A DNA stretch of 10,517 nt, from positions 700-11,216 of the forward strand of contig JAYEOX010000131.1 in the NCBI GenBank assembly GCA_034723415.1, read 5' to 3'. Shown here in pieces: positions 1 through 10,116 of the stretch. This DNA comes from Fidelibacterota bacterium (GTDB lineage: Bacteria; Fidelibacterota; Fidelibacteria; Fidelibacterales; Fidelibacteraceae). How positions within the stretch are numbered: position 1 is the stretch's first letter; each line of letters begins with the position of its first letter. The position numbers and the translations under genes were made by a program. The notes below the pieces were generated by a model. The model saw only the letters and a list, made by a program, of their open reading frames with translations. It made no database searches and was not told where the DNA came from.

Positions 1-137
1 CAGTAGATGCAGTAGAAGGTATATCGGCAGATTCGAAGATAAATTTATCAATTAAGTTTGATGTAAAGAATGTACCTGCAAGCACAAGTGCTGGAGATAT
101 TTCACATAATTGTAAATTAACAATTTTGGCTAATTAA
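1..137 (+). CDS. 3' end (44 aa visible) of an upstream tandem paralog of the pilin-like gene at 171-665; truncated by the window edge
   Basis: Frame from nt 3 reads VDAVEGISADSKINLSIKFDVKNVPASTSAGDISHNCKLTILAN-TAA(135-137), identical to the C-terminus of the 164-aa protein. nt 1-137 match 529-665 except g128/a656, a synonymous Leu TTG/TTA change. Not in the ORF track. Confidence 0.92.
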   Translation, partial: VDAVEGISADSKINLSIKFDVKNVPASTSAGDISHNCKLTILAN

Positions 138-170
138 TAATAAAAAGAAAATTTAAAAAAGGAGAAGAAA

Positions 171-665
171 ATGAAGAAATTAATTGTATTACTATTGTTG
201 TTGGGCGGTATAAGCACAGTATTCGCCGTTAATAATAATGATGACAATGTAGATGTTAACTGGACAATTCCCGCTGTAAATTCCATTGATATTGATGATG
301 AAGCGATTGACATTGGAGAATTGAACCACACAGTTGGTAATGTAAATTTTGATGATGCAACAAGTTCAGGAACATATGATTATGCATCAAATCAAACATC
401 AGAAAGAAAGATCACAGCAGAATTAACATCTGCAAATGTAGCAGCCGGTAACTTATATCTTACACTTGATGATCCAAACACAGAGACAGCAGGATCAGAA
501 GTTGATATTACAAACAGTTATGGATCGGCAGTAGATGCAGTAGAAGGTATATCGGCAGATTCGAAGATAAATTTATCAATTAAGTTTGATGTAAAGAATG
601 TACCTGCAAGCACAAGTGCTGGAGATATTTCACATAATTGTAAATTAACAATTTTAGCTAATTAA
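171..665 (+). CDS. Secreted beta-rich small protein, putative major pilin/fimbrial subunit (chaperone-usher/WxL-like)
   Basis: AAGGAG SD at 159-164. Sec signal peptide MKKLIVLLLLLGGISTVFA. About 145-aa mature chain starting with the alternating strand VDVNWTI and ending AGDISHNCKLTILAN (Gly at -14 plus a terminal alternating strand). Tandem copy and downstream chaperone/usher-like genes support the call. Confidence 0.7.
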   Translation: MKKLIVLLLLLGGISTVFAVNNNDDNVDVNWTIPAVNSIDIDDEAIDIGELNHTVGNVNFDDATSSGTYDYASNQTSERKITAELTSANVAAGNLYLTLDDPNTETAGSEVDITNSYGSAVDAVEGISADSKINLSIKFDVKNVPASTSAGDISHNCKLTILAN

Positions 666-690
666 CAATAAATAGAAAATAATATTAATG

Positions 691-722
691 AAGAGGCGGT
701 TTGTTAACTGTCTCTTTTTTTT
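691..722 (+). terminator. Rho-independent terminator after the pilin genes
   Basis: Stem AAGAGGCGGTT / AACTGTCTCTT (two G-U pairs), loop TGTT, followed by a T-run to 722. Confidence 0.8.
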
Positions 723-780
723 ATGTACAAAATTTTATGTTCATAAATAATTTAGATTTAATGCAAATACCAATATATCA

Positions 781-824
781 AAATTGTTTAATAAAATAAA
801 CAAATTGTATATTTACTTAAACAA
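781..824. promoter_or_regulatory. Two tandem TGT-N12-ACA palindromes, candidate upstream activator sequences for a sigma54 enhancer-binding protein
   Basis: TTGTTTA-ATAAAA-TAAACAA (784-803, perfect inverted repeat) and TTGTATATTTACTTAAACAA (805-824). The sites are 21 bp apart and lie about 130-170 bp upstream of the sigma54 element. Confidence 0.55.
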
Positions 825-952
825 AATTTAATATTTATTAATTTAAAGATATAAAAAAATAAAAAAAGACAAAAAAATATAATCGCATAATAGCGTATAA
901 TAAGGCAAGTTAGCCAGTTAATTAAAATAGTTATTATTAAAACTAACAATTC

Positions 953-968
953 TGGCACAATAGTTGCA
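953..968 (+). promoter_or_regulatory. Sigma54 (RpoN) -24/-12 promoter
   Basis: TGGCACAATAGTTGCA matches the consensus TGGCAC-N5-TTGCA. GG(954-955) and GC(966-967) have the canonical 10-nt spacing, directly upstream of the response regulator. Confidence 0.88.
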
Positions 969-1002
969 TTATATTATAGTGGTATGAAAATGAAAAAGGA
1001 AA

Positions 1003-1440
1003 ATGAAAAAGGAAAATGATATAAAAATGAAAAATACAATATTGATTCTAGAAGATTCGAAAATTCAGAGAATACAGATAATAGATGAATTAAAACGAGA
1101 TGATAGAGAGATAATATCAACAGGATCTATCCTTGAGGCAAAAGAAATTTACGACAGCAACAAGTTCAAAATTGGTCTATTTATACTTGATTTGAAGCTT
1201 CCTGATGGTAATGGAGTTGAATTTCTTGAATATGTAAGAGAATCTTTAAATGTTGCACCTGCTATTATTCAAAGCGGTTTTTTATCTCAAAATATTATAA
1301 GTAGGGCTAGAGAACTTGGAATTATTGAATTTTTTGAAAAACCAATTCAAATTACTAATTTAGTTTTAGTTGTAGAAGAATATTTTAATGACAATATCAA
1401 TGCTAATAAGAAAAAAAAAATAATGTTTATAGTTAATTAA
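1003..1440 (+). CDS. Single-domain response regulator (CheY-like REC); alternative start ATG 1027
   Basis: ILILEDS acidic pocket, FILDLKLPDGNG phosphoacceptor Asp, IIQSG switch Ser and FFEKP conserved Lys; no output domain. Confidence 0.92.
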   Translation: MKKENDIKMKNTILILEDSKIQRIQIIDELKRDDREIISTGSILEAKEIYDSNKFKIGLFILDLKLPDGNGVEFLEYVRESLNVAPAIIQSGFLSQNIISRARELGIIEFFEKPIQITNLVLVVEEYFNDNINANKKKKIMFIVN

Positions 1441-1456
1441 TAAATAGGGTAAAATT

Positions 1457-4400
1457 ATGAAGAAAATAGAAATAATAATATTAATTTTTTTAATGAATGT
1501 TGGTCTATATGCAATAGATAAACAATATCAAGTAAATTCTAGTTCAGACGATGCTGAAGAAAGAGCTGCCGGGTCACAAATTGGAGAAATGTATTTAAGT
1601 AGTAGTGATTTAGAGTTTGTTAGAGATGGAAATGACCAAGAAATTGGAATTAGATTTAATAATATTGACATTCCACAAAACGGTATTATAGATTCTGCAA
1701 AATTGGTTTTTGTTATTGATGAAGACAGAACAACTGAAACTAATTTAAATATTTATGCTCAATATACTGGTAATGCTTTAGAGTTTAATGATAATGATTA
1801 TGATATTACTCAAAGAGCAAAAACATCTAATAGTGTTCAATGGAATAATGTTGATCCAGCAGCTGTTGGCGAGACCTTAACATCTCCTGATATTTCTGCG
1901 ATAATACAAGAAGTTATCAATAGAGAGGACTGGTCATCTGGAAATTCATTGGCAGTAATTATAAATGGAGAGGGTCAAAGAATTGTTGAGTCATATAATG
2001 GTGATAGCAATAATGCTCCAATTTTGAATATATCTTTTATTGCCGGAGAAGAGGATGAAGGTAACGGAGACGAATCTGCAGGATTAGTTTCATTTTGGAA
2101 CTTCAATGAAAATTCAGGATCTGTAGCAAAGGATTCTGTTGGTGATAATAATGGAGTAATTTATGGAGCAAGCTGGACAACTGGTATCAATGGGAGTGCT
2201 TTAGAATTTTTTGGAAAGGGAGAACGTTTAGAAGTAGATAATAGTAATTCTTTAAATATAGATGGTAATCAAATAACTTTATCAACTTGGTTTAAGCTTA
2301 GTGAGATTAAAAATGCGGGTGGACTTATTTTTAAGAATTCCCAATATTTTTTAAAGATTAATAATCAAGGAAAAATAAGTTTTGTTTTATATATTCCATC
2401 TTGGTCAGAGATCTCTACAGATTGGGGTGATAGGATTACAGATACTAACTGGCATCATGTTGCTGGTGTTTATGATGGAGTTGAAATGAAAATTTATTTA
2501 GATGGTAAAGAGTTTGCCAGTCAAGCTGTGAAAGGGAATATTCAACTTACAACTTCTGATGTTTGGATTGGAAGTCAAACAAAATCTCTAAATAATTTTA
2601 ACGGGAAATTAGATGAAATAGGAATATATAACAAAGCATTAAGTGAGTCTGAAATTGAAGATTTATATAACAGTCAATCGCAAACCCCATCAGAAATTTT
2701 AGGTAATCATACAGACGAGGATGGTGATGGTTATTCTCAGGGTTGCACAGTAACAAGTCCACCAGAATGTGAAGAAGGAAGTTTTACTGTTGAATTTGAA
2801 GATATGTTTTCCGGAAGCGGAGAAACCATTAATGATGAAATTAACTGGATGGGTAGGTATGATTTGCCTAATGTTAGTGCTGTGACAGAAAATAATATAG
2901 CGAAAATTTATGGTTGGAAGAATATTAGAACTGTTAACAGTTATGACCATTCCTCAAAATGGGTTAAGTATTCCGTTCAGATCGTAGATGATAACACTGT
3001 GGCAAAAGTAGCAACCCATCCAATTTCTACAGAGTCGGGAGAAGTATTGGGAGGAATTGGAGTAGTGGTTAAATTTGAGAACAGTATAGCTACTATTTAT
3101 GGAGATAATTTAGGTTATGCTCCACAAAGATCTATAGAATCAATTGATTTTTCTGGAGAAAGCGGTCCTTTGCAAGTTAATATCTATCAAAAAGACAAAC
3201 AATATCAAGTAAAATTAGTCAGGGGCGAACACTCGGCCTTTAAGAGCTGGACAGGTAGTCGGGATGAATTAAATAATCCACAGACAATTTTACAGTTGGG
3301 GAGTGAAGGAAGTGATAGTTATTATGATAATGTCAATATTCAAATCTGTGAAGTTGTGCCAGAAGAGATGCAAGGTTCTGGAACAAAAGACGATCCTTAC
3401 ATTATTCTAACTTTGGATCATCTACAATCTATAAACGAAGATTTAGATGCTTATTATAATTTAGGTGTAAATATTGACGCTTCAGAAACTGAAAATTGGA
3501 ATAATGGATTAGGTTTTGAACCACTTGGAAGTGTAGATAGTGCTTTTACTGGAGTTTTTGATGGTAAGGGATATATCATTTCAAATATTTATATTAATCG
3601 TCCAGATTTGAGTTATAGTGGATTGTTTGGTTATATTTATAGATATGGAGATGGTATAGCAATAATTAAAAATGTAGGTATTGAGAGTATTAACATAATT
3701 GCAAAGAATGAGATTGGAGGGTTAGTAGGTTATAATAAATATGGAGATATCTCAAATTGTTATGTTACTGAAGGTTCTATTAATGGAAGCGGATCTGTTG
3801 TAGGGGGATTAGTTGGACATAATCGTGGATATATTATAGATTCTTATTCAACTGCTGTTGAATTAGAGGGTTATTATGGTGTAGGAGGATTAATTGGAAG
3901 ACACGATTATCATATCAGTAATACCTATGCTGCAAATATAGTTAATGTAAGAGATACCAATACTCCTTTCCAAGGAGGCTTAATTGGTTGGGTTAATACT
4001 GACTTTGAGCCAACAGTTAATAATTCGTTTTGGGACACAGAAGTATCAAATCAAAATACAACTCACCTAAATATGGGAACAGGAAAGACCACCGCTGAAA
4101 TGCAAGATGTAGTAACCTTTACAGATGAAAATACTGACGGTTTAGATGATGCCTGGGACTTTATAAACAATCCTAATAATGATACCGCTAATGAAGATAT
4201 TTGGATTATTGAAGAAGATGTTTATCCTTTTTTAACTTTATTTTCAGATTATGGACCAGATGAGCCAACACCGGTGACATTAATAGATTTTAATGCTAGT
4301 AATGAGAATGGAAATGTTGTACTTAATTGGAATACTGCTTCTGAAACAGATAATGTTGGTTACAAAATTTATAGAAAATTAAGAAACAAAGATAGTGAAT

Positions 4401-4864
4401 TAATATCCTCTTATTCAGATAATTATGATCTGAAAGGACAAGGAAATTCAACTGAAAAACACAATTATGAATATATTGATTCAAATGTAAAAGCAAGTGT
4501 AGATTATACTTACATATTAAAAAATGTTGATTATTCAGGAACTGAAACCAAATCCGGTGAAGTAAATATTACAACAAATGAAAGTAATTTTATTATAAAT
4601 GATAAATACATATTGGAAAACACATATCCAAATCCATTCAATTCCACATTTACAATTCCACTAAAATTGAACGAAAGTGCATTTGTAGATATAAAATTAA
4701 TAAATATACTTGGACAGAAAGTATTACAGATCAAAGAGAATCAAATGGTTGAAGGTAATCATAATTTACAAGTAAATTGTAATGATCTAGTTTCAGGCAC
4801 CTATTTTGTAAGAGTAACAGTTGATAATGTAAATGATGTTCAAAAAGTTGTTTTATTAAAATAA
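1457..4864 (+). CDS. Large secreted multi-domain adhesin-like protein: signal peptide, DDAEE/DNRLRE-like domain, LamG, unassigned domain, GLUG-motif region, FN3-like domain, T9SS type-A C-terminal sorting domain
   Basis: Signal peptide MKKIEIIILIFLMNVGLYA. SSSDDAEE..SSDLE..GIRF..SPDISAIIQEVI..APIL (~1515-2040). LamG GLVSFWNFNE..WHHVAGVYDG..IYLDG..FNGKLDEIGIYNKALS (~2080-2670). GSGTKDDPYII..FTGVFDGKGYIISNIYI..GGLVG repeats (~3370-4240). PVTLIDFNA..WNTASETDNVGYKIYR (~4265-4575). YPNPFN..LVSGTYFVRV..QKVVLLK (~4605-4861). Confidence 0.85.
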   Translation: MKKIEIIILIFLMNVGLYAIDKQYQVNSSSDDAEERAAGSQIGEMYLSSSDLEFVRDGNDQEIGIRFNNIDIPQNGIIDSAKLVFVIDEDRTTETNLNIYAQYTGNALEFNDNDYDITQRAKTSNSVQWNNVDPAAVGETLTSPDISAIIQEVINREDWSSGNSLAVIINGEGQRIVESYNGDSNNAPILNISFIAGEEDEGNGDESAGLVSFWNFNENSGSVAKDSVGDNNGVIYGASWTTGINGSALEFFGKGERLEVDNSNSLNIDGNQITLSTWFKLSEIKNAGGLIFKNSQYFLKINNQGKISFVLYIPSWSEISTDWGDRITDTNWHHVAGVYDGVEMKIYLDGKEFASQAVKGNIQLTTSDVWIGSQTKSLNNFNGKLDEIGIYNKALSESEIEDLYNSQSQTPSEILGNHTDEDGDGYSQGCTVTSPPECEEGSFTVEFEDMFSGSGETINDEINWMGRYDLPNVSAVTENNIAKIYGWKNIRTVNSYDHSSKWVKYSVQIVDDNTVAKVATHPISTESGEVLGGIGVVVKFENSIATIYGDNLGYAPQRSIESIDFSGESGPLQVNIYQKDKQYQVKLVRGEHSAFKSWTGSRDELNNPQTILQLGSEGSDSYYDNVNIQICEVVPEEMQGSGTKDDPYIILTLDHLQSINEDLDAYYNLGVNIDASETENWNNGLGFEPLGSVDSAFTGVFDGKGYIISNIYINRPDLSYSGLFGYIYRYGDGIAIIKNVGIESINIIAKNEIGGLVGYNKYGDISNCYVTEGSINGSGSVVGGLVGHNRGYIIDSYSTAVELEGYYGVGGLIGRHDYHISNTYAANIVNVRDTNTPFQGGLIGWVNTDFEPTVNNSFWDTEVSNQNTTHLNMGTGKTTAEMQDVVTFTDENTDGLDDAWDFINNPNNDTANEDIWIIEEDVYPFLTLFSDYGPDEPTPVTLIDFNASNENGNVVLNWNTASETDNVGYKIYRKLRNKDSELISSYSDNYDLKGQGNSTEKHNYEYIDSNVKASVDYTYILKNVDYSGTETKSGEVNITTNESNFIINDKYILENTYPNPFNSTFTIPLKLNESAFVDIKLINILGQKVLQIKENQMVEGNHNLQVNCNDLVSGTYFVRVTVDNVNDVQKVVLLK

Positions 4865-4994
4865 AGAACATTTAATTTTAGAAAAATAAGAAAAAATAGA
4901 ATAGAAATTTAAAAAGAAAAAATGAAAAAAATAATAATTCTTGGCTTTTTAAATAATAATAATTACATTTCTTTAAACTAGGAGTTTGAATTAT

Positions 4995-5936
4995 ATGAAA
5001 ATTTTTAAAACATTAATTATAATAATATTTATTACAACATTTTTATTTAGTGCTGATGCTGTATCTATTGTTCCATCTGATAAAACAATGATCGGCGGTA
5101 ATACAGAAATATTTGATGTAAATATTAATAATGCCTTTAATCTGAGTGGTTTTGACATTCGGATCAAATATAATACAGATTATATTAGCTCATTTGTATT
5201 GACTGAAGGGACATTTCTAGACAATGCTGATGGTAATACTACTCAATGGTATGTTACAGGAGTTGCAGGTGACTATATTGCTCATTGTACAATTTTAGGA
5301 CCAACAGAAGGAGCAACAGGTAATGGAAAATTATTTACAATTGAAATTACTACAAAAGATGTAAATTATACAGTAAATTCCGATATATTGTTGTATTCTG
5401 CTATTTTTAGTAAGTCTGACGACCATCCTGATGATCAATTTGCTGCTGTAGGTGTTTTAGAAAAAAGTATTTCAAACCAATCTATTTTAAATAGTGTTAA
5501 TTTAACTATCTGGCCTAATTGGGGAAACATTGATATTATAGGTAATTGGGATATTATAAATATTTCTGAAAATGATATTATTAATTCAAATGAAGTTGAA
5601 AGTGCAGATAATTTTGTTTACCTGGATGTTAGTGGTTTTTCCTGCAACTGGTGGTTCTGTGATAACTGGAGAATCGATGTCAAAAAAACAGATATTAATT
5701 GGAATGAAAATCTTGTATTATCATTAAAAAGAGTTAATGATGGACATGCTGATAATAATGGAGAAATTAATGGTGGTACCAATTATCAAATAATTACAAA
5801 TTCAAATCAATTATTTTGTGAAGGAGAGGGCGATAGAAAGAGAATCTATTTACAAAATAAATTAGGAGGATTATCCTATCAAATTCCTCCAGACACATAT
5901 TCAACTACAATACAATTCACAATTATAGATGAGTAA
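4995..5936 (+). CDS. Secreted two-domain protein: N-terminal cohesin-like domain plus C-terminal pilin-like domain (putative minor/tip subunit)
   Basis: AGGAG at 4980-4984 favours ATG 4995 over TTG 4986. Signal peptide MKIFKTLIIIIFITTFLFSA. Cohesin-like motifs FDVNINNAFNLSGFDIRIKYN..LTEGTFL..GNGKLFTIEI. C-terminus PDTYSTTIQFTIIDE aligns without gaps with the pilin C-terminus AGDISHNCKLTILAN. Confidence 0.65.
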   Translation: MKIFKTLIIIIFITTFLFSADAVSIVPSDKTMIGGNTEIFDVNINNAFNLSGFDIRIKYNTDYISSFVLTEGTFLDNADGNTTQWYVTGVAGDYIAHCTILGPTEGATGNGKLFTIEITTKDVNYTVNSDILLYSAIFSKSDDHPDDQFAAVGVLEKSISNQSILNSVNLTIWPNWGNIDIIGNWDIINISENDIINSNEVESADNFVYLDVSGFSCNWWFCDNWRIDVKKTDINWNENLVLSLKRVNDGHADNNGEINGGTNYQIITNSNQLFCEGEGDRKRIYLQNKLGGLSYQIPPDTYSTTIQFTIIDE

Positions 5937-5967
5937 TATTTTTATTAAAAATTAAAAGAGGAATAAA

Positions 5968-6831
5968 ATGGTTATTAAATTTAAAGAAAATATGATATAT
6001 AGAAGTATTAAAAATAACTTAATAAAATATTTTTCTATTTTATTATTTATTATATATATACCATTTTCTTCAAAAGTACTTCTTGGTAGTATTTTAATTG
6101 AAAGTGAGCTATTTTTTCAAGATAACCTAAATATAGGAGAGAGATCTACGGGAGTAATCCGAATTAGAAATACAGGAGAAAAACCGGCAAAAGTAAATCT
6201 CTATAAGAAGGATTATTCATTTAATAGTAATGGTACAAATAGTTATTTGGAACCGGGAACTTTAGAGAGATCGAATGCAGATTGGATTACGATTGTTCCT
6301 GAAAAGGTTACAATCCCCGGTAATGGAAGAGTTGAAATAAATTATACCGTAAAGGTACCCTTTGATAAAGCTCTAATTGGTTCATATTGGAGTCTTATAA
6401 TGGCTGAGCAAGTAACAAATCCAAAACTTAATAATAAAAAAAATAATGATAATGTACGAGTTGGTGTATTTGTTAGCACACGATATGGTATTCAAATACT
6501 TACAAATATTGGTTTAACGGGGCAAAAAAAACTTAAGTTTACAAAAACAAAAATTAAAAAAAATGTTGATAAAGAATATTTATTTGTAGACGTTAAAAAT
6601 GTTGGAGATCAATTTTTACGGACAAAAATTTATGCTGAATTTTATGATCAATCAGGAAATTATATAGGTAAATTTTTAGGGGAGGAGAAAAAGAGAATAT
6701 ATCCTGATACATCTGTAAGATTTAAAATAGATATTAGTAAAATAAAAAATGGAAAATATAGTGTATTAATTGTTGCAGATGGTGAAGAAGAAGCATTGTT
6801 TGGAATAAAATATACTTTAACAATTGAATAA
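5968..6831 (+). CDS. Putative periplasmic pilus chaperone (two Ig-like domains; PapD-like / DUF916 WxL-interacting-protein-like)
   Basis: Hydrophobic signal YFSILLFIIYIPFSS. Domain 1: IRIRNTGEKP..DWITIVPEKVTIPGNGRVEINYTVKVP..GSYWSLIMAE. Domain 2: VDVKNVGD..IYPDTSVRF..GKYSVLIVAD. Stop lies 3 nt before the usher-like start (taaggaatg). Alternative start at 5992. Confidence 0.7.
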   Translation: MVIKFKENMIYRSIKNNLIKYFSILLFIIYIPFSSKVLLGSILIESELFFQDNLNIGERSTGVIRIRNTGEKPAKVNLYKKDYSFNSNGTNSYLEPGTLERSNADWITIVPEKVTIPGNGRVEINYTVKVPFDKALIGSYWSLIMAEQVTNPKLNNKKNNDNVRVGVFVSTRYGIQILTNIGLTGQKKLKFTKTKIKKNVDKEYLFVDVKNVGDQFLRTKIYAEFYDQSGNYIGKFLGEEKKRIYPDTSVRFKIDISKIKNGKYSVLIVADGEEEALFGIKYTLTIE

Positions 6832-6834
6832 GGA

Positions 6835-9800
6835 ATGAAATTATTAATCAATATTACAATTGTTATTTTCTTATTTTTTGTTTTGCCAGAATATTGTTTT
6901 TATAAAACTGATTCTGATAATACTAATTATATATTTAATGATATAAAAAAAATAGAATATGATTCTATTGACAATCAATTTAGCAGTATTTCTTATATTT
7001 ATGATAATAAGCAAATTGGGACTGATTTTGATAATGTAGATAGTATATTAAATGATATTAGAAAAGTAGAACATGATTCTATTAACAATCAATTTAGCAG
7101 GATTTCTTATATTTATGATAATAAGCAAATTGGGACTGATTTTGATAATGTAGATAGTATATTAAATGATATTAGAAAAGTAGAACATGATTCTATTGAC
7201 AATCAATTTGACAGCATTCTTTATTTATATGATAATAAACAAATTGGGACTGATTCAATATTTACTCACCCATTAAAAATATTGAATATGGATACCACTA
7301 ATGTAACAAGTTTAGATACTGTTATGCAAGAGAAACAAAAATTGGGTCCTAAAAGTTTTCCGAAAGGTAATATAAAAATTATTGTCAATAATAAAAAAAA
7401 AAATAGAACAAGCCCCGGAAAAATAATTACTTTTCCAATTAAAATAATTAATAAAAGTAATTATAAAGCTACTTATATAAATAATGTTAAATTACCAAAT
7501 AATTGGAGAATTCTCTCTAAAGCAAAAAAAATTATTTTTAATAAGCAGTCCGAAACTTTAGAATTAGTTAGCGTTTTTATTCCAGGGGCTACATTAGCGG
7601 GTAAATATAATATTGAATATTCACTTATAAATAAATATAATCCGAATGAAAAGAAAAATATAGTAAACATACCCGTTGTTGTTTTACCTGTAATTGACTT
7701 GAGTGTAAATCCAATGAATATAAGATATACAAGCGTTATTGCAGGGGAACCATATAAAGTAGATTTTATAGTTAGTAATAAAAGTAATAAATTAAATAAA
7801 ATAAAGATACTACTTCAATCTGATTTGGGATATAATGTGAACCCAAAAATACAGGAAATAAATTTTCAACCAAATGAAAAGAAAATTATTCAGGCAATTG
7901 TTAAAACAGAGAAAGATATTGAAAAAAAGATTTTTGATAATACAATAATTAATTGTAATATTATTGGGAAACCGAATGTACGGGCAACAGCTAATTATAA
8001 AGTTCAAATTATTCCACGAACTCATGGTGCAGGCGAGAAATTTGTAAAAATTCCTATTAGATTGAAAAATACTTATGTAAGCAAATATGAAGATAAATAT
8101 GAACATGGATTGCTAACTGAATTATCAGGCAATTTTACTATTGGAGAAAATAGAACTAATGTTAATTTTATATTTATGAAACCCAATATTGCGGGTGGAT
8201 CAATAATTAAACAACAAGGAAGGTATTATGTTAGTATAAAATCCAACAATTTTTATTTGAATTTAGGAGATAGAAATTATTCTTTGTCTCCTCTTACATC
8301 AACTTCTTTATATGGTACTGGAATTGAATCAAGTTTTAAGTTTGGAAAGTTTGAGTTAGGTAGTTGGTATTATCATAAGAATAAATATAATAATCAGGAT
8401 AGTAATATTAAAAGATATGCAAGCTATCTGAAATATCATTTCCATGGAAACGAGAATATAGGGGTTAACTATTTTAAAAATGAACAATATGGCAGAAATG
8501 GAAATATTATTAGTTTTAATACCCATTTGAATCCATTTAATAAGAAAACATTTGTTAATATGGAATATGCAATTAATAATCAGGATAGCAGTTATCAAGA
8601 TGCTTATTTATTTGAGTCAAGAGGGTTTTATGATCGTTGGAATTATTCTTTTAAATTTATTCAATCCGACCCATTATTTAGAGGATACAATAATGATAAA
8701 GAATATCTCAGTGGAAATATTAACTTGAAAATATCAAACAATTGGAGAATATTCGCGAGTTTGCATAGTGGTAAGTATAATAGCGAATTTAGCGTCGATG
8801 AAATGCATTCTTATTTATCAGATTACTATAATGTAGGATTTAAATTTCTTAAATCTAAATTTCGTGCAGGTATAAATTATAATTATTTTGAGAGAGAAGA
8901 TAGAACTCTTGGATCAGAGTATCATCAGGTTGAAAATAGAGTTAATTTTATTTTTAGCCAGCAGTTTAAAAAATTTAATTATAATATTTTTACGAATCAT
9001 GGAATTGGGGAAAATTTACTTTCAGGAGTAGAATCATCTTTTAATAGATATGAACTTCGTTTTGGTTATAAGCATTCATCAAAACAATCTTATAATTTTA
9101 ATATATCCTATAATGGATATGATTATAGAAGTGGAGCATTAATAAAAAAATATGTAAACGCCGGTTTAAATGTAAGATATAAATTATTCAAGAACTTAAA
9201 GGGAGAAGCATATTATAACATGTTTCATTATTTAAATGATATAAATTCCGGTTATAATAGCTTTAATGTTAGATTAACTCAGAAATTATTTAATGGTTAT
9301 GTTTCACTTCAAACTAAACATTATTTGTACAATGATCCAGAGCAGTCAACTATACATGAAATGTTTTTAGAATATAGTTTACCAATTAACGCACCAATTT
9401 GGAAGAAAAAAAATGTCGGTCAAGTTTATGGAAATATTATTAATGCTGAAACCGGTGAACCATATAAAGATATTATAGTAAACATTGTTGATTTATTCTC
9501 AGTTACAAATGAAAAAGGGGAATATCGTTTCAAATATTTGGAAGCTGGAAAACATATTCTAAATATTAATGCTTCAAAATTAGATGCCAACTTAATACCA
9601 CTTAATCAGGGTCCACTTATTATTAATGTCAGTAGCGGTGAGAAAAAAAGATTAGATATACAGCTTACGAAAACCAAAACTTTTATTGGTAAAGTGGCTG
9701 TTTACAAAGAAAAAGAAGTAGGTTTATTAACGAAATCACAAAAAAAAGAATATGTTTTTGATTATGGTTTGGAAAATGCGATTGTTGAATTGAGAAAAGA

Positions 9801-10038
9801 AGATAGAAAAGAACAGGTAATTTCAGGTTTACAAGGAAATTTTAGATTCTCAGAATTAATACCGGGTAAATGGAAATTATCAGTATTAGAAGAAGATATT
9901 CCCGAAGGATATTTTGTTAAAAAAGATAATTATGAAATTTATATTAAACCAAATGAAAAAACGAAGAGTTTTGAGATTAAGATATTGCCCAAAAGGCGAA
10001 AGATTCACATGATGGAGGAAGGTGGTGAAGTTAAATAG
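6835..10038 (+). CDS. Usher-like outer-membrane protein: signal, 38-aa repeats, two COG1470/NEW3-like Ig domains, large beta-barrel, two C-terminal carboxypeptidase-regulatory/SdrD-B-like domains
   Basis: Ig motifs PGKIITFPIKIINKSN..LPNNW..IPGATLAGKYNI and AGEPYKVDFIVSNKSN. Y/F/N-rich amphipathic strands at ~8050-9390, including LGDRNYSLSPLT..GTGIE. Then GQVYGNII..TNEKGEYRFKYLEAGKHILNI and GNFRFSELIPGKWKLSV..IPEGY. Confidence 0.7.
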   Translation: MKLLINITIVIFLFFVLPEYCFYKTDSDNTNYIFNDIKKIEYDSIDNQFSSISYIYDNKQIGTDFDNVDSILNDIRKVEHDSINNQFSRISYIYDNKQIGTDFDNVDSILNDIRKVEHDSIDNQFDSILYLYDNKQIGTDSIFTHPLKILNMDTTNVTSLDTVMQEKQKLGPKSFPKGNIKIIVNNKKKNRTSPGKIITFPIKIINKSNYKATYINNVKLPNNWRILSKAKKIIFNKQSETLELVSVFIPGATLAGKYNIEYSLINKYNPNEKKNIVNIPVVVLPVIDLSVNPMNIRYTSVIAGEPYKVDFIVSNKSNKLNKIKILLQSDLGYNVNPKIQEINFQPNEKKIIQAIVKTEKDIEKKIFDNTIINCNIIGKPNVRATANYKVQIIPRTHGAGEKFVKIPIRLKNTYVSKYEDKYEHGLLTELSGNFTIGENRTNVNFIFMKPNIAGGSIIKQQGRYYVSIKSNNFYLNLGDRNYSLSPLTSTSLYGTGIESSFKFGKFELGSWYYHKNKYNNQDSNIKRYASYLKYHFHGNENIGVNYFKNEQYGRNGNIISFNTHLNPFNKKTFVNMEYAINNQDSSYQDAYLFESRGFYDRWNYSFKFIQSDPLFRGYNNDKEYLSGNINLKISNNWRIFASLHSGKYNSEFSVDEMHSYLSDYYNVGFKFLKSKFRAGINYNYFEREDRTLGSEYHQVENRVNFIFSQQFKKFNYNIFTNHGIGENLLSGVESSFNRYELRFGYKHSSKQSYNFNISYNGYDYRSGALIKKYVNAGLNVRYKLFKNLKGEAYYNMFHYLNDINSGYNSFNVRLTQKLFNGYVSLQTKHYLYNDPEQSTIHEMFLEYSLPINAPIWKKKNVGQVYGNIINAETGEPYKDIIVNIVDLFSVTNEKGEYRFKYLEAGKHILNINASKLDANLIPLNQGPLIINVSSGEKKRLDIQLTKTKTFIGKVAVYKEKEVGLLTKSQKKEYVFDYGLENAIVELRKEDRKEQVISGLQGNFRFSELIPGKWKLSVLEEDIPEGYFVKKDNYEIYIKPNEKTKSFEIKILPKRRKIHMMEEGGEVK
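6907..7255 (+). repeat. In-frame tandem repeat, 3 x 114 bp (38 aa), in the N-terminus of the usher-like gene
   Basis: Units start at 6907, 7021 and 7135 (actgatt[c/t]tgataat...gataataa[g/a]caaattggg), with a partial unit at 7249-7255. Unit approximates TDFDNVDSILNDIRKVEHDSINNQFSRISYIYDNKQIG. Confidence 0.93.
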
Positions 10039-10083: not shown

Positions 10084-10116
10084 AAAAAAAAGACCTGTAA
10101 TTTAAACAGGTCTTTT
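10084..10116. terminator. Bidirectional intrinsic terminator between convergent genes
   Basis: AAAAGACCTGT(10088-10098) / ACAGGTCTTTT(10106-10116) perfect stem with a 7-nt loop; A8 on the left and T4 on the right. Confidence 0.85.

Follow-up and report, generated by a model that had tools for sequence, protein, structure and literature searches.

The 10,517-nt window, i.e., the whole stretch of DNA analysed, originated from a Marinisomatota-type genome and encodes four core genes, namely, those of a pilin, a tip subunit, a chaperone, and an outer-membrane barrel protein. A preliminary description of this DNA had placed the pilin at 171-665, a two-domain protein at 4986-5936, a chaperone-like protein at 5968-6831, and a barrel protein at 6835-10038, all on the + strand, with a 3-nt gap coupling the last two genes. 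Both the placements and the coupling were borne out. The features of the window are listed below.

1..137, +, 3' end of a near-identical pilin copy lying upstream; the tandem array is collapsed at a gap in the scaffold
171..665, +, major pilin (164 aa); Ig-like core predicted to be incomplete, with its last strand as the chain end
about 171-227, +, putative signal peptide of the pilin
240-269, +, predicted donor strand at the pilin's N terminus (mature residues about 5-14)
690..727, +, intrinsic-terminator-like hairpin (690-717) and T run, 3' of the pilin
953..968, +, sigma54-type -24/-12 promoter motif (strict motif match)
1003..1440, +, single-domain response regulator (PF00072, E 2e-13); outside the conserved core
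1457..4864, +, T9SS cargo protein (LamG, GLUG, Por_Secre_tail C-terminal sorting domain); an insertion in this genome, outside the conserved core
4986..5936, +, predicted tip subunit, 316 aa; N-terminal domain with a cohesin fold, joined to a pilin-like domain
5968..6831, +, chaperone of two domains, predicted to be periplasmic, 287 aa
6835..10038, +, predicted usher-like outer-membrane protein, 1067 aa
6907..7255, +, lineage-specific set of three repeats of 114 nt (38 aa) within the barrel protein's N-terminal extension
about 7372-8013, +, two N-terminal Ig domains of the barrel protein
about 8041-9405, +, predicted 26-strand barrel with no inserted plug
about 9415-9990, +, two C-terminal prealbumin-like domains of the barrel protein
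10088..10116, no strand assigned (detected on the minus strand), terminator-like hairpin separating a convergent DUF2582 gene from the barrel gene

The tandem small secreted proteins of the preliminary description proved to be a real array, with the correction that they are near-identical copies of one pilin, collapsed at an assembly gap. The copy at 1-137 was compared with 529-680 and showed 98% identity over 152 nt; a run of N lies in the scaffold immediately upstream of the window start, and the contig contains three 3' ends and two 5' ends of the pilin. A pilin-to-pilin joint (528 to 1) was present in contigs from one of three public DNA runs and from an RNA run in a second study; the promoter-to-pilin joint (987 to 142) was present in contigs from all three DNA runs. 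Moreover, the pilin contigs of the public runs were approximately 3.6-6 times deeper than neighbouring long contigs, although depth does not equal copy number. From these joints and depths, an assembly artefact was ruled out and the array was concluded to be real, with roughly five near-identical copies, the exact number being approximate. Such amplification may increase the supply of subunits.

In the window genome, the cluster was interrupted by a terminator, a duplicated sigma54-type promoter, the response regulator, and the T9SS cargo gene, the pilin being separated from the assembly genes by the terminator and two unrelated genes. The terminator-promoter stretch was duplicated whole; its second copy is located 5' of another pilin copy (C131:425), and the promoter copies were aligned. 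When the genome of 1.94 Mb was scanned with the sigma54 -24/-12 consensus, only four strict matches were obtained, two of them at the pilus locus. The genome also carries RpoN and two strong activator matches, and control of the locus by sigma54 is conceivable. In a same-genus locus (L004/L007), the response regulator was missing between the pilin and tip genes, and T9SS cargo genes were found downstream of the cluster rather than inside. SprA was present in the genome. An NCBIfam TafC match on the cargo protein was rejected, as it covered the LamG domain only. In the single RNA run, which was from another strain and consisted of contigs, from which neither absence nor level can be read, the pilin and the cargo gene were covered and no long piece of the chaperone or barrel genes was found.

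The major pilin was modelled using AF2 (pLDDT 93) with residues 1-17 unpaired and the chain ending on its last strand, in agreement with the incomplete fold that had been expected. Its best fold neighbours were CfaB, cannulae, CS17, and EcpA, all strand-donating filament subunits (Z 7-8.6), and TLP-1b (9IKK) was also matched (Z 6.7), although a link to it could not be established; these scores may be generic, as the best Z was 8.6, no Foldseek E was below 0.001, and the TM-scores were 0.4-0.5. The alternating hydrophobic pattern of the N terminus was kept across 128 aligned family pilins. The single Cys and the missing penultimate Tyr reported for the window pilin are both true; within the 128 pilins, 57 had no Cys, 50 had one, and a penultimate Tyr occurred in none. 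Known pilin families were matched by none of the 128 at E 0.01, and the WxL domain PF13731 was likewise matched by none. As the profile-profile comparison of the major pilin with 8 WxL proteins was also poor (0.3%), the reading of the pilins as WxL domains was left unsupported and rejected. Sequence searches of the PDB using the pilin and tip profiles yielded chance-level matches only.

The sole significant PDB match of the chaperone profile was EfmWxLIP1 (E 1e-7), over both domains. In profile-profile comparisons, the family matched WxLIP (96-98%) and archaic Csu-type chaperones (95-98%) about equally, whereas the latter two matched each other poorly (26-61%). Thus, the family forms a sequence bridge between them. 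Classical chaperones (PapD/FimC/Caf1M) were matched at 4-53%. The earlier view that the parts are closer to WxL and DUF916 proteins than to PapC and PapD therefore was supported for the chaperone only, to which the archaic Csu-type is equally close by profile, and failed for the pilins, which have no WxL similarity. PF00345 was matched by none of 149 family chaperones, PF06030 by 24, and PF11797 by 8 (E 0.01); the window chaperone itself scored 20.9 bits, below the Pfam cut-off of 27.3. In a quick tree, a split separated the family, together with WxLIP, from all PF00345 chaperones, with an SH-aLRT support of 96 for the PF00345 side and 93 (unstarred) for the family with WxLIP; as the tree was midpoint-drawn, we infer no direction of descent from it. 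Further WxLIP genes were sought in the order of G154, and none was added.

Compared with the WxL (Elr) pilus of Bacillota and its DUF916/DUF3324 chaperone (WxLIP, ElrE), the window chaperone was homologous over both domains, including the domain-1 hairpin, and parallel donor-strand complementation is predicted as well. However, hydropathy indicated a C-terminal membrane helix in none of the 149 chaperones, against 96.7% in a 2026 preprint on the WxL pilus (10.64898/2026.10.17.759780), and an outer-membrane barrel is present in place of sortase/LPxTG anchoring. In that preprint, WxL operons were found in Bacillota only (10.64898/2026.10.17.759780), whereas the window family occurs in two-membrane phyla. 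According to the preprint, strand-exchange pili are formed by WxL proteins, the chaperones of which are disjoint from chaperone-usher (CU) chaperones, and common ancestry is left open (10.64898/2026.10.17.759780). Since the present family matches both sides, this question becomes testable.

The donor strand of the chaperone was predicted at mature residues 123-133, then a conserved R-Y motif. Y133 (Tyr in 129/149, Phe in 12/149), which follows R132, aligns with the R-I of EcpB, and the donor strand of the family is thus register-shifted and fills position 0, as do Tyr116 of CsuC and Ile117 of EcpB. Classical chaperones have two basic anchor residues in domain 1; in the first strand of the family, basic residues are not conserved. 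For non-classical chaperones (CsuC/EcpB/CfaA), the domain-1 arginine has been named as the feature that characterises them most (PMC4654587). At the position aligned with this invariant Arg89, the anchor of the subunit carboxylate, the family has Ser (146/149) or Cys (3/149), in a weak, low-probability alignment with EcpB (0.45%), and no conserved Arg lies in the columns beside it. In domain 2, the anchor positions are basic or polar, with Arg203 (121/149) at the Tyr position and Arg178 (74/149) at the Arg position.

Structure prediction of the chaperone with the pilin, proposed earlier as a check, yielded a score of 0.89 (median of three runs), and the best of three controls reached 0.01. The contacts agreed by at least 94%, and the pLDDT of the partners was 86 or higher. 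Of 157 solved complexes, 116 attained the mark applied to this score, as did 2 of 215 mismatched pairs; these counts are only approximate for predictions from our own alignments. In the model, chaperone residues 126-134 pair with pilin residues 136-143 with indices rising on both, i.e., parallel to the last pilin strand, and residues 199-203 contact the pilin. Chaperone-bound CU and WxL pilins have this parallel geometry (10.64898/2026.10.17.759780). The result may partly reflect memory, given the likeness to solved chaperone-pilin pairs.

For the barrel protein, whose relatives are mostly about 930 aa, the AF2 model (pLDDT 89) contained 26 consecutive amphipathic strands, all alternating in hydrophobicity, with a longest gap of 14 residues. 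An usher has a barrel of 24 strands into which a plug domain is inserted, the part considered central to its gating. The wide barrel with a plug that had been anticipated was thus half supported: a wide barrel was predicted, with FimD/PapC at all of Foldseek ranks 1-10 (E 5e-15 to 8e-11), but the plug was predicted to be absent. The strand count and the plug's absence were read from a single model (pTM 0.67), by way of its secondary structure and its alignments. Whole-chain TM-scores against FimD/PapC were 0.24-0.32 only. The best match by Z, and the best for the barrel alone, was MtrB (Z 20.8, 413/449 residues aligned, rmsd 5.0), a porin barrel with 26 strands; this likeness was read as one of barrel size only, as the core here has no cytochrome genes and the barrel protein has four extra periplasmic domains. 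Residues 224-878 were co-linear with PapC 139-808, and the barrel with both C-terminal domains was co-linear with FimD too. Beyond this structural likeness, the system differs from classical Fim/Pap pili in its chaperone profile and lacks PapC_N, a conserved pair of Cys, a penultimate Tyr and, by prediction, the plug.

The locus could instead encode a very divergent form of a known non-classical CU pilus (archaic Csu/CupE; alternative CFA/I, ECP), its differences being drift or modelling error. It shares with these the pilin-chaperone-usher operon logic, the predicted incomplete pilin fold with an N-terminal strand and CfaB/EcpA as nearest folds, the shifted R-Y/I donor motif, and a barrel followed by two C-terminal domains. 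At 95% (E 3.5e-8), the barrel profile also matched 12 archaic ushers from PF00345 loci, 11 of them above the PF00577 cut-off; the match spanned the barrel's second half and the two C-terminal domains. However, no part has Pfam membership: the window proteins reached no usher, PapD, pilin, or WxL cut-off, PapD_N, SCPU, and Fimbrial also remained without a match, and PF00577, PapC_N, and PapC_C were unmatched at E 0.1 in the window protein, throughout the genome, and in four close relatives. Single-sequence comparison with E. coli EcpA, EcpB, and EcpC was insignificant. Together with the replaced domain-1 arginine, the tree position, the predicted 26 strands leaving no room for a plug, the two N-terminal NEW3-like Ig domains, the usually single donor-less domain of the family tip, and the lack of a conserved disulfide, these results make this explanation unlikely.

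In the tip subunit, the N-terminal domain (about residues 23-176) had cohesin-type structural neighbours, and the pilin-like domain matched the pilins weakly (profile E 8e-4). The latter belongs to a subfamily without a donor strand, present in 56 of 80 loci. Its single-domain relatives begin approximately 14 residues later, straight at the first core strand; the median distance from the hydrophobic region was 12 residues in the tip subfamily (n=48) and 23 in the pilins (n=117), a shortening of approximately 14 residues after register correction. The tip profile matched 8 WxL proteins at 25% over 23 columns. A cohesin fold might suggest a scaffold for T9SS cargo, in which the tip docks dockerin-bearing enzymes and the cargo gene is a functional part. 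T9SS cargo genes do lie in or beside the cluster in the window and the same-genus locus; by eye, one of them contains a stretch resembling a dockerin, and cargo-like genes occur near 6 of the 80 loci. However, PF00404, PF00963, a dockerin-like motif, and a second cohesin were all without a match in the 94%-complete genome, the cohesin-fold fusion was seen only in two genomes, both of the window's genus, and adjacency may be due to chance, as T9SS cargo genes are abundant in this genome. Accordingly, the scaffold explanation was considered extremely unlikely.

The 80 loci were chosen by the chaperone alone, from many two-membrane phyla. The barrel gene was found in 78, a pilin-like gene in 76, and both in 74, in conserved order and far above chance; the six loci without both partners were all at contig ends. 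Thus, the expectation that similar clusters exist in other genomes was confirmed. In many loci, the small subunits were of several kinds, as many as 7-8. This variety and the predicted plugless barrel of MtrB-like size would suit a module that exports or displays small proteins singly, or as a short complex on the surface such as a WxL-platform-like coat or short stalks, rather than a long pilus. However, the conserved free N-terminal strand of the major subunits, lost in one dedicated subfamily, is what a capped polymer with head-to-tail subunits would require, the approximately five copies of one pilin gene behind strong-looking promoters suggest bulk demand, and WxL proteins themselves turned out to be pili. 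Display without a long pilus is therefore very improbable.

Overall, the four core genes probably specify a pilus of a class not described before, which relies on a chaperone and a pore and is built by strand swapping. The non-canonical chaperone-usher machine proposed earlier was thus supported by computation, through the predicted pilin fold, the predicted wide barrel, and the co-occurrence of the genes. In the proposed mechanism, the pilin would be exported via Sec and held by the periplasmic chaperone, which is predicted to lend it a strand, the C-terminal carboxylate of the subunit possibly being anchored by the domain-2 arginine, mature Arg203. The pilin would then be handed to the predicted plugless barrel and exported through it, with polymerisation at the barrel as the N-terminal strand of each subunit completes its neighbour. 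The donor-less 316-aa protein would sit at the tip with its cohesin-fold domain as an adhesive payload, and the open pore may be gated by a periplasmic Ig domain or the tip subunit. The pilus may serve in surface attachment or aggregation.

No published description of this gene cluster or pilus class was found in literature searches. We give an even chance to the broader reading, that these pili are a widespread third class, formed by strand exchange under the guidance of a chaperone and centred on two-membrane environmental phyla, in which the chaperone family is the evolutionary link between the Gram-positive WxL and proteobacterial CU systems and a 26-strand plugless pore assembles fibres. 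Assembly by such a pore would imply a gating mechanism not yet described, and a plugless usher, if true, would test the need for the plug in gating and catalysis. The range of CU-type pili would also widen to many phyla in which surveys based on Pfam overlook them. With the chaperone profile, 734 clusters at 50% identity were found (E <1e-30). Two Bacillota with a membrane-tailed chaperone relative had neither an Omp85 nor a barrel match, and all three carriers labelled 'Clostridia/Bacillota' had Omp85. The cultured carriers include Deinococcus deserti, Thiocapsa marina, and Thiohalocapsa marina.

The window, which comes from an FCB-group bacterium, carried seven genes:

171–665, + strand: pilin, no Pfam match
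1003–1440, + strand: response regulator, named by Pfam/NCBIfam
1457–4864, + strand: T9SS cargo, named by Pfam/NCBIfam
4986–5936, + strand: two-domain protein (316 aa), no Pfam match
5968–6831, + strand: chaperone-like protein, sub-threshold WxLIP_PGBD match (E 4e-4)
6835–10038, + strand: barrel protein, Pfam/NCBIfam matches to prealbumin-like C-terminal domains only
Convergent to the barrel gene: DUF2582 gene, named by Pfam/NCBIfam

SprA was present in the window genome, and no PF00577 usher was found in it. The regulator and cargo genes stood downstream of one copy of a duplicated promoter. As the cluster in a second genome of the same genus has the order pilin-tip-chaperone-barrel and lacks both genes, they were regarded as an insertion and not as part of the core. 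Within the cargo gene, a related strain in the public RNA run X5 skipped about 2177–3359, which suggests that the middle domains are gained or lost as modules.

Scanning the chaperone alignment across species-representative genomes yielded 291 confirmed stretches, and the best 80 were analyzed. These were labelled Deltaproteobacteria, KSB1, Planctomycetota, Ignavibacteria, Zixibacteria, Chromatiales, Spirochaetota, Verrucomicrobiota, Bacteroidetes, Armatimonadetes, and others. With iterated profiles, a barrel gene was detected in 78 and a pilin-like gene in 76 of these 80 loci; 74 had both. The loci include near-duplicates (L023/L029 and L027/L031) and represent fewer than 80 independent cases. 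The six loci missing a barrel or pilin match were all at contig ends, and Omp85 was present in all three carriers labelled Clostridia or Bacillota. The cluster was also found in Deinococcus deserti (DEIDE_RS15110–15125), where the products are recorded as hypothetical proteins or carry the labels "FimB/Mfa2 family" and "carboxypeptidase regulatory-like domain"; Thiocapsa marina is another carrier available in culture. The proposal in the preliminary description that similar clusters exist elsewhere was borne out. The chaperone profile matched 4515 clusters (50% identity) at E 0.001 and 734 at 1e-30. In the phylum of the window, 29 of 251 genomes were matched, mostly weakly, as was 1 of 32 other genomes of the same family; this patchy spread would fit a mobile module.

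Two-component genes recurred beside the cluster (L007–L086), one receiver-bearing family in 20 of the 80 loci, and such genes are common anyway. In a variant from genome G031 (L005:7587–17522), five genes were pilin-like, and the barrel protein measured 2137 aa; its N-terminal part contained a stretch of Cys-rich repeats as well as about eight PKD domains. A sister system (L159 in G481, L163 in G561, and L135–L152) combined DUF4402-type pilins with an 890-aa barrel-like protein ending in a carboxypeptidase-regulatory-like domain. Its chaperone scored 30–70 bits against the window's chaperone family, and the system was frequent in one genus of the same phylum (17 of 23).

The chaperone had been placed closer to WxL-interacting proteins (WxLIP) than to PapD. 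Its profile (149 sequences) gave two significant matches in the PDB, both to EfmWxLIP1 over both domains (E 1e-7), and matched no chaperone-usher (CU) chaperone there up to E 1. Among the 149 members, 24 matched WxLIP_PGBD and 8 matched WxLIP_HBD, all weakly, and none matched PapD_N. Profile-profile comparisons were made with 9 WxLIP proteins, 12 classical chaperones, and 16 PF00345 proteins with lower scores that were treated as the archaic set; 9 of 11 small genes checked beside this archaic set encoded SCPU pilins. The family matched WxLIP at 96–98%, the archaic set at 95–98%, and the classical set at 4–53%, while WxLIP matched the archaic set at 26–61% and the classical set under 1%. As an 11-sequence subsample still gave the lower ends of the ranges, depth alone does not account for the double match. 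By profile, the placement held against classical chaperones, but archaic ones were equally close. In a quick tree of 56 sequences, which was unrooted and had saturating distances, all 24 PF00345 proteins were set apart (SH-aLRT 96), and the family grouped with WxLIP and membrane-tailed monoderm forms (SH-aLRT 93).

According to the accessible part of 10.64898/2026.10.17.759780, WxL pili are built by a DUF916/DUF3324 chaperone in Bacillota only, at E 1e-20 no connection links WxL chaperones with PF00345 chaperones, and ElrE resembles CsuC, CfaA, EcpB, and Caf1M by Foldseek. The present results do not contradict that part, because its Pfam-threshold screen misses the window's family, which, as judged by sequence, bridges the gap between WxL and PF00345 chaperones. 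Chaperone relatives with a C-terminal hydrophobic tail stood beside one non-WxL secreted pilin-like subunit (L161, L162, and L089), and no Omp85 or barrel match was found in two Bacillota genomes carrying them (completeness not stated). These membrane-tailed monoderm forms may be transitional towards WxL pili. A 555-aa chaperone relative of about double the usual length (L160:6654–8321) adjoined a secretin-like gene in G053, a Bacillota genome positive for Omp85. Among control genomes, PF06030 (WxLIP_PGBD) exceeded its cut-off in Thermotoga maritima, i.e., outside Bacillota, and PF00345 did so in Deinococcus radiodurans.

Compared with the non-classical CU chaperones described in the accessible part of PMC4654587, the window family kept the shifted donor register, but had Ser in place of the domain-1 Arg89 and Arg at the domain-2 Tyr position. 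A pilin-chaperone complex was predicted with a score of 0.89, against at most 0.01 for controls; as similar complexes have been solved, structures memorized by the model may contribute. Of 157 solved complexes, 116 reached the score mark, as did 2 of 215 mismatched pairs. Contact agreement was at least 94%, with partner pLDDT of at least 86. Chaperone residues 126–134 ran parallel to pilin residues 136–143, and additional contacts involved the chaperone's first strand, domain-1 hairpin, and residues 199–203.

In the AF2 model of the pilin (128 sequences, pLDDT 93), residues 1–17 had no sheet partners, and the final strand was the very C-terminus. Fold matches were led by strand-donating subunits, namely, CfaB, archaeal cannulae, CS17, EcpA, and PapG/FimH pilin domains, at modest scores (Z 8.6–6.5; Foldseek E 0.002 and weaker). 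The Atlas model matched SCPU (TM 0.63) and Fimbrial (TM 0.58) clusters, also modestly. The incomplete Ig fold anticipated for the pilin is favoured by the unpaired segment and the fold neighbours, at modest fold scores. Conserved in the alignment were a T-x-T last strand and, at the N-terminus, a segment in which hydrophobic residues alternate; neither Cys nor the penultimate Tyr was conserved across aligned pilins. The C-terminal domain of the 316-aa protein fell into a subfamily, weakly homologous to pilins (E 8e-4), that occurred in 56 of the 80 loci and nearly always lay directly 5' of the chaperone gene. In relatives, this domain stood alone and began at the first core strand, about 14 residues further on, and therefore lacked a donor strand. 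By CU logic, this donor-less subfamily would be the tip subunit. Among the loci examined, a cohesin-fold domain was fused N-terminally to the pilin-like domain in this genus only.

The barrel model (AF2, residues 176–1067, 64 sequences; pLDDT 89, pTM 0.67) comprised two Ig domains, 26 consecutive strands (228–682), all alternating in hydrophobicity, and two C-terminal domains. FimD/PapC filled Foldseek ranks 1–10 with low whole-chain TM. VIA-align gave Z 20.8 for MtrB (413 of 449 residues), 15.4–15.9 for PapC, and 15.3 for FimD, and the barrel with both C-terminal domains was co-linear with full PapC and FimD. The profile match to 12 ushers of PF00345 loci was 95%, spanning the second barrel half and both C-terminal domains. 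From the fold matches, co-linearity, and profile match, the protein was identified as an usher relative. FimD and PapC have 24 strands plus a plug, and MtrB has 26 strands; the window's barrel is predicted to be larger than FimD/PapC and plugless. Of the wide barrel with a plug expected at 6835–10038, the AF2 model thus retained the barrel but not the plug. Three 38-aa repeats occupied the N-terminal extension (window 6907–7255), where public contigs break, and their number may vary.

Unlike the window system, the cyanobacterial systems in the accessible part of PMC4390875 have PF05229, PF00345, and PF00577. The accessible parts of PMC11494351 and 10.1101/2025.10.22.684050 held nothing on the window's family, and no description of this pilus family was found in the literature searched, which covered few subscription journals. 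By their tested defining features, the window system lies outside the classical, archaic, alternative, and WxL families. It probably works like a non-classical chaperone-usher pilus.

Window positions 1–152 recurred at 529–680 with 98% identity. Directly upstream of the window the scaffold has an N-run and, beyond it, another pilin end, a terminator, a promoter, and a pilin start. The joint 528->1 was present in contigs of one of three public DNA runs and of an RNA run from a second study, and the joint 987->142 in those of all three DNA runs. Pilin contig depth was 110.6, 195.9, and 71.6, against 18–21, 36–46, and 12–20 in neighbouring long contigs, depth being a rough guide only. The three DNA runs belong to one study, and one run may be the source of the window. 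The joints and depth point to about five near-identical pilin copies.

A sigma54-type motif lay at 953–968, one of four strict matches in the window genome, two of them at the pilin locus; the search pattern, based on the sigma54 consensus, was defined after the window was seen. Of 73 testable related loci, 7 had the motif upstream of pilin genes; when the opposite strand was used instead, 1 did. The window genome encodes RpoN and two strong activators. Together, these make sigma54 control likely for the window and for a minority of its relatives. The promoter copies differed almost only in a 35-nt stretch (window 884–916), 40–70 nt upstream of the sigma54 motif. Its two short palindromes are candidate activator sites, possibly giving the promoter copies different control. 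Another locus (L035) had seven consecutive pilin genes with four sigma54-type motifs in between.
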